NCBI RefSeq assembly: GCF_018977255.1
Contig: NW_024704744.1
Span: forward strand, 88,660,001-88,724,000
Length of the DNA stretch: 64,000 bases
DNA from: Callorhinchus milii
Taxonomy: Eukaryota
Direction of reading: 5' to 3'
Shown here: positions 3,303 to 22,360 of the stretch, in pieces
Numbering within the stretch: the stretch's first letter is position 1
Layout of the letters: each line of letters opens with the position of its first letter
Notes under the pieces: generated by a model
The model's database searches: none
Seen by the model: only the letters and a program-made list of their open reading frames with translations
What the model was told of the DNA's origin: nothing
Translations under genes and position numbers: made by a program

Positions 3303-4922
3303 GTGAGCACCCTGGCTGACTTTTTCACACCAGCAATAGCAGACAGATTGTAACTATACATTTTTATACGTACATTTTTATTTTAGCCGTATCCTGTATG
3401 AGCAACGAATTCCAACCTAAGCAGTCTGTCATTATGAGTTTGATCAACCATTTGGATTTCCCCTTAGTGCTGTGCTCTGTGGAGCTGTCAGATATAATGG
3501 AACCTGACAATAAGCTAAAGAGTTTTCTTGAAAAGCTAGGTAGAGAACATGTTTTAGTTTGTTTGCTAAATCAAATCAAATATCTAAATCTTGCATGGCA
3601 TTGCATAAAACACCATCAGGACAGAATAATGCACCAATATTTCGAGCCTTTCTCGCTCCACAGGTTTACTGTTCACAATGAAGACAATGCTTCCTTTTCA
3701 AGTGAATTTTGTTACATTGCTGTCACAGTTTCTGTTCCTACAAGTCTCTGACAATCCCAAGCCATCAATGCTGGGCAGCAGGTTCACTCCAAAGGAAATG
3801 CTTCACTTACATCCAACCTGATCCATTCCCTTGAGTATCTGGCAGATTAAATAGGGATATGACATTTTACTGTAACCGTCAGGATATCAGGTAGTGAAGT
3901 ATTGTTTTATCAGCACAACTCGTTACTAGGATTCTATTATTATGACAGAGAAGATGGATTGAAAGGGCAAGCTTGCTCCTTAGGAAGAGTTGCTGAATTT
4001 ACTGCATATAACATTCGTGCTTTTTTCTCCCCTACTCTGTTATTCCTTAGGGAAAGTATTGAAAGTTATTGGATTCTCACTCTCTTGTGACTTTGTATGT
4101 ACAGAGACAGGACTTTTAATGGTGTTCTTTTGGTGTTTCAGAGGAGCTGAAATCTGATTTGAAAACTACAAAGTGTTGAAAACTACAAAGGTAGAAGAGT
4201 AACATGCCTCTTATCTGAATTAAAAAGAGGATTTGAAGGGGAGAGAAAACATGACTGTAGGCACAGTATAACCCCAAAGTATTAGTGAACTTCAGCCCAT
4301 GATGGAAATCACACGGAATTGTCTGTGCCCATTCAGACTGCACTGATCAGTGCTGTTAAAGCCTACTTCTCTTCAGTATAACTACAACTTGTTTTGGAGT
4401 GGTACAGATCTTGAAGTTCTTAAAAGCAGTTTAATCTTTAAGACTGAGCAGCACTGTGGAAAATTCTTAAATTTAGTCCATGTTTGGAAGTCGTGTTTTG
4501 CAGATACAAAACTTGAAAAGACCTGACTTCCAAATCAAGATTGTAATTAAGAATCTTCCACAATTCTACATGAATTGTGAAATTCATGAATGGTGAAATG
4601 GTGAAATTCTACATGAATCAAAATTCCACCAAAGCCTAGGTGGAACTTCAGTTCTCAGATGAGACCTAATGAATGCAGCACCTAGATTCTGCTCCTGAAT
4701 CTCAATCCCTTTCTGCCGACAAATTCTATGGACATTTATGCGCAAAACAACAACACAAGCCTATCACACTTCTTTTATACAACTCTGTATCATACCTGAT
4801 GGAGCAAATAAAATCATCGCACTGCAATCATTTTCATATTATCATTGCTTCAAATGCATCCCATTAAATTACTCTGAAAAAAATCAAATGTGATCAAACA
4901 TGTCCTTTATTCTCATTCATAG

Positions 4923-5161
4923 CTCTCTGAAGGAACCTCAACACAGCAAACTATCCATGAGCTGCAGCCCTTTACTACCTACTCTGTTGGTGTAGAGGCA
5001 TGTACGTGCTTTCGGTGCTGTAGCAAAGGACCAATAGCAAATTTTGTTACTCGCCCGTCAGCTCCTTTCAACCAGCCTTCTCCACAACCCAAGAGTGTTA
5101 AGTCAAGGAATGCCATCTTACAGTGGAACACTCCACTGTCTCCTAATGGTGTTATTCAGAG
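4923..5161 (+). CDS. USH2A: Usherin exon (about human exon 66), FN3
   Basis: ttcatag|CTCTCT...CAGAG|gtaaga; 239 nt, phase 0-2; LSEGTSTQQTIHELQPFTTYSVGVEACTCFRCCSKGP...SPNGVIQ; not in ORF track. Confidence 0.95.
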
Positions 5162-16353: not shown

Positions 16354-16583
16354 ATCCTTTTCTACCTACTGCTGATGGAAAAACAGGGGTACATCCAGCA
16401 AGGACTCCATTCTACAGTGAACTTTGGTTCATTATCCTAATGGCAATTCTTGGGTTGCTGTTTGTGGCTATCATCTTGGCTCTGCTTCTCCAAAGAGCAG
16501 TCAATAAGCAACCATATAAACGTGAAAGGCCACCTTTAGTCCCATTGCAGAAGAGAACAAACGTGCCCAATGAATCCTTTATG
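16354..16583 (+). CDS. USH2A: Usherin transmembrane exon (about human exon 70)
   Basis: ttttgaag|ATCCT...TTTATG|gtaagt; 230 nt, phase 1-0; FYSELWFIILMAILGLLFVAIILALLLQR (TM) then PYKRERPPLVPLQKR. Confidence 0.96.
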
Positions 16584-16613
16584 GTAAGTTGTTTGGGAAT
16601 CTTCTGTTAATAT

Positions 16614-17198
16614 CAACAACAACAAAATTACATTTGTATAGCACCTTTCACGTTGGGAGGATATCCCAAGGCGCAGGACAGTTAAGAGTTTCTGACCCGA
16701 GCTGGGGGTCGGGATTGGGGAGGGTGGAGGGCAGGGGGAGAAGCAGGGTGATCAAAAGCACGGTCAAAGAGGAGAGTCTTGAGATTGGTCTTGAAGGGAG
16801 GGGGTGAGGCAGAGGGAGTGTGGGAAAAATTCCAAAGCGTGGGGGCAGAGTGGCAGAAGGCCCGCCTGCCAATGGAGGGGTGAGCGAGGTGGGGGACGTG
16901 AAGCAGGCCGAAACCTGCTGAGTGAAGGGAGCAGGCAGGATGGTAGGGGGTTAGGATGTTGCAGAGGTAGGAGAGAGCAATACCAGGAGGGCTTTGAAGG
17001 TGAGGACCAGGATCTTGAACTGTATCCTTTGTGTGATGGGAAGCCAGTGGAGTTGGGTGAGGATGGGGGTGATAGGGTCACGGAGAGTACATGGGCTGCA
17101 GAGTTCTGGATGATCTGCAGCCTATGGAGGGAGAAATTGGGAAGGCCAACAAGCAAGGAGTTTGAAAGTCAAGCCTCGATGAAATGAATGCATGTATA
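16614..17198 (-). mobile_element. 5-prime-truncated L2 LINE
   Basis: LVGLPNFSLHRLQIIQNSAAHVL; (TTG)n tail; possible TSD ATATCA at 16610-16615 and 17196-17201. Confidence 0.9.
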
Positions 17199-19454
17199 TC
17201 AGGAAGAAAACTATTCTGCATTAGACGAGCACTATCTTATGCGGTTTGGGGCATCCTCCTGAGGTGAAAGGCACTATATAAGTATAAATGCTATTGCAAT
17301 TATATTGTAAATTTGTTTTAGTTGTTTTACTTTGACTCCTCAAGCCCTCACCTGGCCCTTCGTGTATCACAAAAGTGCCATATAGCAGATGCAACACATG
17401 AGGCCGTTGACACAAACATTGACTCCCCTTGTCTTTCATTGTAGTCCATCTGTCAAACTTAAATTATCACCTCCCCCTCTCACTTTCCCCTTGCTCAGCG
17501 TCCAACCCCGGCACCGTGCCATCCTGCTTGAACGGTGCTATATAAATGCAAGCTGTTATTAAATTATTTTGCCCTCTTTGCATTTATCCTGGATGGTGCA
17601 GACCTGACAGAGTTTGTATTTTACGTCTGCAATTTTAGATATTGGCACATTTTACTGTTCAGAATCCATAGGATGCCACATTCTTAAACACGCAATGGCA
17701 GCTTCTTGCATTTTCTTGCAGAGTTAGATTTTTTTCCACATTGTTTTGTAAATACATTGATGAGAAGTACTGAATCCTCCAGCAGATTGTAAAGATAAAC
17801 TCAATCCATACAGGTCACTTAAATTCAACTTGGGGAAGACTCTGACCATTAAAGTCAGCGTTTAAATCTTGGCAAAATGGAATTCTTAACAAAGCTGTCG
17901 CTATGTACTGAACGTTTGAACCCTATCAAACAATCTGACTCTAATCGATCTTAATCTGAAATCACTTTATTCCTTATTATTTACCTCAACTCGCTTTATT
18001 CCTGTTTATGCTTAAAATTTCAACTGAACTTTCTTTTCTCTTTCTTTCTTGACATTATTAACTGTTCTGTGTTTCCTGGCCAAGAAAACCTCTAAAGATG
18101 ATAATGCCTCTAGTCAATATTCCAATATAGCCACGTTGCAAGTCCCTCTTGTACCTACCCCACTTGTGGAAGAAACACCCCAGGACAAGGTAAGTAGCTT
18201 ACTGAGTTCTAAATTGGTACAAGCGGTGAGTGATGTCTGTTTTAAGTCAGCTCAATATGATCTTTTTGGTGAAGTCTAGGGTGTTTGTTAATCCACCACA
18301 TTAACAAAAAATAGCATTTGCATCCTTTTAAAGGCTTCTTCAACCAGTCCTGCTTCCGACTGCATAAAATAATATGTTGTTGTTCCATGACCACAGTACT
18401 CTCACCTCAATGCCGTAGGAACATGTTTCATTAAGCTTCCTCTCTCCAAAAAACATGGAATATTTTCTCTAGCTCTCCTTCATCTTCTAAGGAAATGTTC
18501 TGCATAGATAGTTCCTGTTGTCTGTATTTCCTTTCACAGGCCAATATCCCCATCACCAGCCCCAACAAAACCATTATTTTCTTTACACCGTTTTCTCATC
18601 TCAACCTGTATCCGTCTCTATTAACTAACAATGGTTCCATTGGTGCTTGTATGTTTCAGGAGTACTTCAACACAACAACAAATTATATTTGTATAGCACA
18701 TTTCACATCAGGAGGATGTCCCAATGCACTGGATAGTCAGGGATCTGCAGCTCTTACTGCTCTTGTGGGGGAGTCTGTACTCACTGAGGGGAAATCTATT
18801 CTCAGTCACGTTTTAGCTTGTTAACTAAGATTGGAATCATTTGTTCCAGTCTCACAGTTTAAATCAAATAGCCTGCTTATATTTATATTGTGTATCTTGG
18901 GAATGAACCAGGTTATGATTGTGGTGCTTGGATCCTACCACTTGTGCTTTATTATTGACACAATGTACCACAGAAATCCCAATACCATGCTCAGATGCCA
19001 GACCATTACACTTTTGCAGATCAATAGTCTGAGAAAGTCTGGCATATTAACAATGCAAACTCACGTTGCAAAGCTTGGTAAATCTGCCAACCCGTAGAGA
19101 ATTGTTACCTGAGTTTACACAGAAATTTCTACTGACAAATTGGAATTTTTTTTTGTAGGTCATATCATCGTTTATTTTGCATCATGCTTATTTTTGACCT
19201 TTCAAGTTAGAAGGTTTTTTCAGTTTTCTTGCCCTGAAAGTCTAGAAGTGCAGATTCACTGGAATGGTAACCCTCTGGCAACCCTCTTCAGGTGAGAGCC
19301 TAAATGTTTACAGTCAGCAGGCTATTCAACCATACAAAGCAATATTAACATAGCCAAGCTTGAAACTATTCCCACCTCACACCAATTAACATGGGCTTGC
19401 CAGGTAGAGGGATCTCTGGCTGGTTATTTTCCATCACTCCCATCCTTTATGTCT

Positions 19455-19895: not shown

Positions 19896-19967
19896 TTTGA
19901 CTCTGTTGCAGAGCCCTCAGATTCTTCAGGTTCTGTCACACTTAAGAGCTATACAATGTGCTTTGAG
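19896..19967 (+). CDS. USH2A: Usherin 72-nt alternative cytoplasmic exon (homologue of the inner-ear-enriched 24-aa exon)
   Basis: tctttctcttcttag|TTTGAC...TTTGAG|gtatgc; phase 0-0; FDSVAEPSDSSGSVTLKSYTMCFE, similar to the mammalian alternative peptide as I recall it (FDSVAD...VTLKSYTMHFE). Confidence 0.88.
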
Positions 19968-20040: not shown

Positions 20041-20066
20041 ACTAATTGCATGGTTTGTGCTGCATG
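20041..20066 (+). promoter_or_regulatory. Intronic splicing element cluster (QKI-type ACTAAT plus two Rbfox TGCATG)
   Basis: ACTAAT 20041-20046, TGCATG 20047-20052 and 20061-20066, 74-99 nt downstream of the 72-nt alternative exon. Confidence 0.6.
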
Positions 20067-21595: not shown

Positions 21596-21811
21596 GGGCT
21601 CACTGACACAAAAATCCCAGAACCTGGATCTCAGCTCAGCAATCGGACCATGTCAGTGCTACGTGTGCCAAGCCAGAACCAGCTGAGCCAGGTCTATTCC
21701 AAGACCTCACTGCACCGAAGCGTCAGTCAGCTTATCAATACTCACGACAAAAAGTCCTTGCTTGAAGACTCAATGTGGGATTCTCTTTTGCAGGGTCGCG
21801 ACAGCGGAATG
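21596..21811 (+). CDS. USH2A: Usherin penultimate exon, cytoplasmic tail
   Basis: gacttgcag|GGGCTC...GGAATG|gtaatt; 216 nt, phase 0-0; GLTDTKIP...VLRVPSQNQ...SLHRSVSQL...DKK...DSGM. Confidence 0.95.
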
Positions 21812-21846
21812 GTAATTAAATCATTAATACGTAAAAGTCACTTAAT

Positions 21847-21993
21847 GTTTGTGGGACACTGCTGTGTGCAATTGGCTGCCGTGTTTTGCCCATAAAGTAT
21901 ACAGTCAATTAACTTTACAATGTATTCTGTGAAGCGCTTTGAGACGTCTCAAAGAAGTGATAAAGTGCTATATCAAATGCAAGGATTATTATT
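21847..21993 (+). mobile_element. SINE 3-prime half
   Basis: gtttgtgggacactgctgtgtgcaattggctgcc...tatcaaatgcaaggattattatt. Confidence 0.85.
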
Positions 21994-22270
21994 ACAATGT
22001 GCAGGACTCATGGAAGAAATGCACAGAATTTTGGAAGCAATGATCAGAGTGATCCCATTTTCAGATTCGGTGCAAATTGTACAAGTTCGAAAGTGAAGCC
22101 ATGATTATTCATTCAATCAAATCTTAATTAACAAAGATTTCATGACATGATTGAATCTTATTGTGCATTACGTTTGATTAAATGACCCTCAGGTCTAAAT
22201 CTCTTTCAAGCATTTGAAGATGCTGTAAACGGTGGATGCTTATCTAATTCCCTTTTCATTTGTGTTTCAG

Positions 22271-22360
22271 TACCCAGATGATGAAGAACTTTTGGAGTCA
22301 ATCAAAGGTTTCAGTACAGTTACAAAAGAGCACACTATATTCACTGACACTCAGCTGTAG
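22271..22360 (+). CDS. USH2A: Usherin last coding exon with class I PDZ-binding motif and stop
   Basis: gtttcag|TACCCA...CAGCTGTAG; 90 nt; YPDDEELLESIKGFSTVTKEHTIFTDTQL*. Confidence 0.96.
   Translation, partial: YPDDEELLESIKGFSTVTKEHTIFTDTQL

Follow-up and report, generated by a model that had tools for sequence, protein, structure and literature searches.

Does usherin, encoded by the deaf-blindness gene USH2A, carry in its cytoplasmic tail a segment that the gene models of Callorhinchus milii have passed over? The question was raised by an initial annotation of the window, by which we mean the whole 64,000-nt stretch of C. milii DNA analysed here. Between the transmembrane exon and the exons that follow it, this annotation had proposed an extra cassette exon of 105 nt at 18085-18189, behind a long zone free of AG dinucleotides.

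A spliced, in-frame exon in the usherin tail

The exons flanking 18085-18189 were identified as usherin by protein search (Table 1). The transmembrane, 216-nt and last exons are letter-identical to two C. milii models (P0076 and P0124), while a third model (P0125) contains the 216-nt and last exons exactly and has the same junction as the other two. All three public models join the transmembrane exon directly to the 216-nt exon, with neither the 105-nt exon nor the 72-nt cassette present. In a zebrafish study, a mutation at Ala5174 is assigned to "exon 71" (10.64898/2026.03.09.710525). The alanine equidistant from the C-terminus falls in the exon starting GLTDTK, by which the intron studied here would be intron 70 of the 72-exon numbering.

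Table 1. Features of the USH2A tail region, in window coordinates
Feature	Position	Strand	Basis
USH2A transmembrane exon, upstream neighbour (equivalent of exon 70 of 72)	16354..16583	+	identical to models P0076/P0124
AG exclusion zone, 188 nt, 66% pyrimidine, 5 TCTT	17895..18082	+	
Distal branch-point candidates CTGAC (A 17938), CTAAT (A 17944), TTAAT (A 17954)	17935..17955	+	motif match
Unbroken 22-nt pyrimidine tract	18029..18050	+	
Proximal branch-point candidates TTGAC (A 18052, -33), TTAAC (A 18061, -24)	18049..18062	+	motif match
Unannotated 105-nt phase 0-0 exon, 35 aa	18085..18189	+	X1 junction contigs, homology; absent from the species' models
SQYSNI, proposed ITIM/SH2 pattern, Tyr unconserved	18112..18129	+	
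LQVP conserved core	18136..18147	+	8/8 34-aa orthologous inserts
Consensus donor GTAAGT	18190..18195	+	
72-nt, 24-aa cassette, position and size of the mammalian inner-ear exon	19896..19967	+	similar peptides in other vertebrates; PMC8417766
Next constitutive exon, 216 nt, carries SVLRVP	21596..21811	+	identical to P0076/P0124; one match in own genome
Last coding exon, ends in PDZ-binding motif DTQL	22271..22360	+	

Re-reading of the sequence upheld the proposed exon. Frame 0 is open and stop-free over the 105 nt, the acceptor is AAG, the donor is AAG/GTAAGT and the 35-residue peptide is as had been given, and phase 0 is found as well at the donor that precedes the exon and at the acceptors that follow it.

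Of 12 sequencing runs, six were examined (X1, X2, X3, X4, X8 and X10); none is recorded as RNA, and X1 is taken as RNA-type by guess. X1 contains the joint 16583>18085 (depth 42.1, short side 107 nt) and the joint 18189>21596 (depth 45.6, short side 27 nt), both with GT..AG borders. A 1,084-nt contig of depth 42.1, the sole X1 contig on the transmembrane exon, runs from the previous exon (ending 13798; the loose end of the contig matches 13768-13797) through the transmembrane exon to 18085. Depth is 42-46 at the joints of the new exon, 28-32 on the downstream exons and 4-7 in intron contigs. The upstream junction foreseen by the initial annotation was thereby found; of the two downstream junctions it had foreseen, 18189>21596 exists and 18189>19896 was not seen among the X1 joints listed. 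In fact, the 72-nt exon is skipped in X1, where it appears only in an unspliced contig (19800-20147, depth 4.4). A retrocopy was considered as the origin of the joints and rejected, since the region and the next exon each match the C. milii genome once, and DNA-type run X4 shows no break on the transmembrane exon. Runs X2, X3 and X10 contain no junction here, with the transmembrane exon uncovered in X3 and X10, and X8, which comes from another organism, has only a 39-nt intronic match; these four runs speak neither for nor against the joints. All runs examined show very high depth over high-copy repeats within the introns (16600-17180 and 21840-22000).

With GT..AG joints on both sides, the frame kept, and the peptide conserved at the same junction in protein models of other species, 18085-18189 is a real, spliced, in-frame USH2A exon by which the cytoplasmic tail of usherin gains 35 residues, and the annotation of C. 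milii is corrected by it. In X1, a single run from a single study seen as contigs, the form that includes the exon dominates. As the ear-type exon is left out of the usherin mRNA in X1, the tissue behind this run may be guessed to be of photoreceptor type, and inclusion would then take place in such tissue. Depending on the combination of the two cassettes, the tail would have 132, 156, 167 or 191 residues (132 with neither, 167 with the new exon and 191 with both). The initial annotation had expected up to four usherin tails, and the four combinations do exist in public models of other fishes. Peptides resembling that of the 72-nt exon occur in shark, ray, coelacanth, teleost, reptile and bird models. 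Two TGCATG motifs, which we take to be of RBFOX type, lie 80-100 nt downstream of the 72-nt exon (20047-20066), the window average being 0.34 per kb.

The AG-free acceptor and probable optional inclusion

A recount bore out the sequence signals that had drawn attention to this acceptor, namely the AG-free zone, the branch-point-like CTGAC, CTAAT and TTAAC, and the unbroken pyrimidine tract. At 188 nt, the zone is the longest gap among the 4,489 AGs on the + strand of the window, the runner-up being 133 nt. A gap of 188 was reached in 1 of 60 dinucleotide shuffles of the whole window and in none of 60 made in 500-nt blocks. Gap length alone is nevertheless only moderately unusual, because comparably frequent dinucleotides also leave long gaps in the window (AT 201, AC 195, GT 208 and GA 182 nt). 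For the eight USH2A acceptors annotated in the window, the zones span 23-116 nt, and for the 72-nt exon 25 nt. The 116-nt zone (4805-4920) belongs to the acceptor of the exon at 4923. TCTT occurs five times in the 188-nt zone, as against about 1.5 per 188 nt of intron background.

PTB binds UCUU and is low in neurons. Inclusion of the exon could be regulated through PTB-type repression on the UCUU tract or through a candidate distant branch point. The distal candidate adenosines lie at -147, -141 and -131 with a U-rich tract after them, a pattern as in PMC1431707. By the estimate given there, only between a fifth and a half of zones longer than 100 nt go with a distant branch point; cassettes are commoner among exons with AG-free zones of at least 100 nt (P=0.002). 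Regulation of the Musashi type was considered and set aside, since UAG occurs twice in the 201 nt downstream, where 1.9 are expected, and is thus not enriched. It is likely that the long AG-free, pyrimidine-rich acceptor regulates the exon.

Public models offer pairs of isoforms, with and without the insert, within Podarcis raffonei, Anolis sagrei, Pyxicephalus, Lepisosteus and Alligator. From these pairs, together with the 188-nt zone, we infer that inclusion is optional, and the exon likely behaves as a cassette. Mutual exclusion with the ear exon was rejected, as models with both are found in gar, frogs, lizards, a turtle and 5 of 53 teleosts.

Counterparts in other vertebrates

The comparison outside C. 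milii is built throughout on automated gene models at the protein level; named models spanning the tail were hand-picked from protein searches and cluster look-ups, with fragments excluded and redundant isoforms mostly so. An insert between the transmembrane exon and the ear or next exon is present in four of five chondrostean and five of nine holostean models. At the same place, inserts were found in 9 of 14 amphibian models (one more was unparsed), and among the reptile models in 4 of 20 from squamates, 4 of 7 from crocodilians and 1 of 11 from turtles. Among 53 parsed teleost models (one unparsed), 23 carry just the new insert and 19 just the ear exon, with both present in 5 and neither in 6. 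No insert was found at this junction in five shark or ray models, one coelacanth, two bird and five mammal models; the shark and ray, bird and mammal absences speak only weakly for loss. Two further shark-like proteins are also without it, and among 1.84 billion representatives a profile search brought up no insert-bearing tail of shark-like type, a null that is weak because one protein was kept per 50% cluster.

Insert length is 34 residues in sturgeon, paddlefish, crocodilians, turtle and lizards, and 22-32 residues in gar, amphibians and teleosts. By local alignment with 5,000 shuffles each, the 35-residue peptide is similar to 9 of 19 inserts, from six reptiles, two chondrosteans and gar (p 0.0002-0.005), with 15/30 identities in Acipenser, 14/33 in Polyodon and 11/31 in Alligator. 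The ear-exon peptide, used as an alignment control, scored 12-22 versus 35-76. The remaining ten inserts, from Amia, four amphibians and five teleosts, gave no significant similarity (p 0.10-0.96), for which reason the orthology of the Amia, amphibian and teleost inserts rests on position. The zebrafish insert (Danio XP_009291422) lies at the same junction, the teleost version being about 22 residues and not alignable with confidence. In the reverse direction, a profile of the two chondrostean inserts, run on the window cut into 2,883 six-frame pieces, gave the exon as its best match (E 1.9e-5, the next at 0.55). A sauropsid-only profile placed it third (E 0.25). The teleost profile missed it and gave an unrelated match at E 0.0014, and a 12-sequence profile found the exon at an E of 0.0014, equal to that unrelated match.

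The 35-residue peptide and the 34-residue inserts have a DN...Q...LQVP...DK pattern in common. Insert-bearing models such as Acipenser XP_033872973.3, Crocodylus XP_019405018.1 and Podarcis XP_053239130.1 share the junction, the 34 residues and the DN...Q...LQVP core. Because the junction is the same, the lengths are 35 and 34 residues and the pattern is shared, descent from a jawed-vertebrate ancestor is the simplest reading. The 105-nt exon is thus likely to be ancient, widespread in jawed vertebrates and orthologous to the 34-residue insert of sturgeons and reptiles. Its age and wide spread, like the LQVP core, had escaped the initial annotation. The idea that the exon arose as a copy of the first part of its downstream neighbour was rejected, the match of SQYSN..LQVP with SQLSN..LRVP scoring 25 at p=0.22.

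Some of the models are of interest in themselves. P0235, a divergent usherin of 5,376 residues, has the ear-type segment and not the new insert, a hint that of these two exons the ear exon may have come first. The reference "usherin" of zebra shark and three rays (P0002, P0006, P0028 and P0029) has only 219-222 residues, comprising the transmembrane segment and a tail with the ear exon; this may be a short form with an internal start, broken annotation or loss of the long gene. P0233, P0234, P0237 and P0238 are short usherin-like proteins of transmembrane segment plus tail, ending FTDTNL and containing the ear-type segment, and possibly represent a duplicate gene in fishes.

The initial annotation knew of no such exon in mammalian USH2A, which agrees with its absence from all five mammal models. 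This silence is weak, because the same five models also lack the ear exon known in mammals. Loss of the exon in mammals is plausible, going by these comparisons.

In the full-text literature, mostly non-subscription, no published description of the exon was found; a prior mention, for instance in zebrafish cDNA cloning, is possible. In their accessible parts, PMC8268283, PMC8417766, PMC7642844, PMC10497539 and PMC8232728 name only the 24-residue ear exon in this region, and those of PMC10258241 and PMC10018040 have nothing on a 105-nt exon. Its counterparts stand as unnamed inserts in database models, with no description found in print.

Alternative readings, peptide motifs and known systems

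Perhaps the exon is ancient yet constitutive in C. milii, and the models miss it by following mammalian proteins. The only X1 contig on the transmembrane exon includes it, its joints are deeper than the downstream exons, and the skipping junction was not seen in the X1 contigs of C. milii; yet contigs drop rare variants and X1 stands for one tissue only, isoform pairs exist in five other species, and the 188-nt zone is unlike those of the eight constitutive acceptors. We judge constitutive inclusion unlikely. It could also be argued that the exon is a lineage-specific cryptic exon or splicing noise and that the inserts of other species arose independently. Human USH2A gives some ground for this. 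In long reads from human retina (PMC12047242), no natural skipping is seen among the 72 USH2A exons, and of 41 cryptic exons that turn up sporadically one, 55 nt long, lies in intron 70; the lack of an insert in the shark and ray models points the same way. Noise would hardly form the dominant product in X1, however, nor would it share junction, near-equal length and significant similarity with the sturgeon and reptile inserts, and this reading is in our opinion most improbable.

As for what the peptide does, the initial annotation had read SQYSNI as a fit to ITIM-like/YxxPhi and YxN SH2-docking patterns, and these patterns do occur in the peptide. They are also matched in 5% (ITIM), 18% (YxxPhi) and 5.5% (YxN) of its shuffles, and in alignable orthologues the tyrosine gives way to F in the chondrosteans and to H, P or S in the reptiles, with no tyrosine anywhere in the eight 34-residue orthologues. 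Phosphotyrosine signalling is rejected because the tyrosine is not conserved, and we give it very little chance. In contrast, LQVP stands in the C. milii peptide and in all eight 34-residue orthologues, and arises in 2.8% of shuffles; it is absent from the gar and teleost inserts. Insertion would take the tail from 132 to 167 residues by lengthening the linker between membrane and PDZ-binding motif, a linker rich in S, T and P and probably disordered, as judged from composition only. It would add a putative short docking motif while leaving the end that binds whirlin and harmonin unchanged, and we predict that partner binding is tuned by the LQVP core and not by the tyrosine.

Taken together, the observations are best explained by an ancient USH2A cassette exon of jawed vertebrates, regulated through an AG-free acceptor and tuning partner binding through LQVP, which as a joint account we consider probable. 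A wider scenario, tentative and to our minds rather doubtful, would be an ancestral two-exon switch, with the 105-nt exon used in photoreceptors and the 72-nt exon in hair cells; mammals would have lost the former, leaving human cryptic exon 70A as a frameshifted relic, and the retinas of fishes (including the zebrafish in which Usher syndrome type 2A is modelled), frogs and reptiles would keep an extra LQVP docking site, missing in humans and possibly for calcineurin.

This kind of event is in itself ordinary. A second tail exon, found from chimaeras to crocodilians, nonetheless revises the picture of the ancestral usherin, and LQVP is a conserved motif in a tail so far noted chiefly for the PDZ-binding motif at its end. 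Moreover, the zebrafish reference has an insert here, which matters for antibodies, for rescue constructs and for how exons are numbered in the chief animal model of USH2A disease. If a relic in human intron 70 were true, it would be a place to seek deep-intronic splice variants.

The nearest known system is inner-ear exon 71, attributed to Adato et al. 2005 as cited in PMC8417766, PMC8268283 and PMC7642844. Like it, the new exon makes an in-frame insertion into the tail from the same intron and leaves the PDZ-binding end intact. Unlike it, the new exon lies 1.7 kb upstream, is unrelated in sequence, has a 188-nt instead of a 25-nt AG-free zone, is present in the X1 transcript, which skips the ear exon, and is unseen in mammal models. 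The traits of exon 71 (72 nt, 24 residues, VTLK core) are not those of 18085-18189, and the position that answers to them is 19896-19967.

Exons with distant branch points, as described in PMC1431707, resemble ours in a zone longer than 150 nt with upstream branch-point-like motifs and then a pyrimidine-rich tract. Of the traits of AG-exclusion-zone exons, the length (at least 100-150 nt) and the motif and tract near the upstream end are found here; our exon differs in also having good candidates near the 3' splice site (TTGAC, TTAAC). With the calcineurin pi-Phi-LxVP motif, which according to PMC5156906 needs a polar residue at -2 and a hydrophobic one at -1, the peptide shares a conserved LxVP core in a probably disordered tail. 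Its own -2 and -1 residues are Ala-Thr, outside the full motif, which is present in two of the eight 34-residue orthologues (T-I and T-L) and, among the listed species, only in paddlefish, Paroedura and X. tropicalis; the resemblance may serve as a lead rather than as membership. The constitutive exon at 21596-21811 has S-V-L-R-V-P, which fits the full motif, and L-x-[VI]-P is found there in 74 of 152 long usherin models. Finally, human cryptic exon 70A (chr1:215633076-215633022, PMC12047242 Table S3) lies, like the new exon, in intron 70, the inferred orthologous intron; unlike it, it is 55 nt long, out of frame and sporadic, and by analogy of place it is possible that it is a relic of the 105-nt exon.
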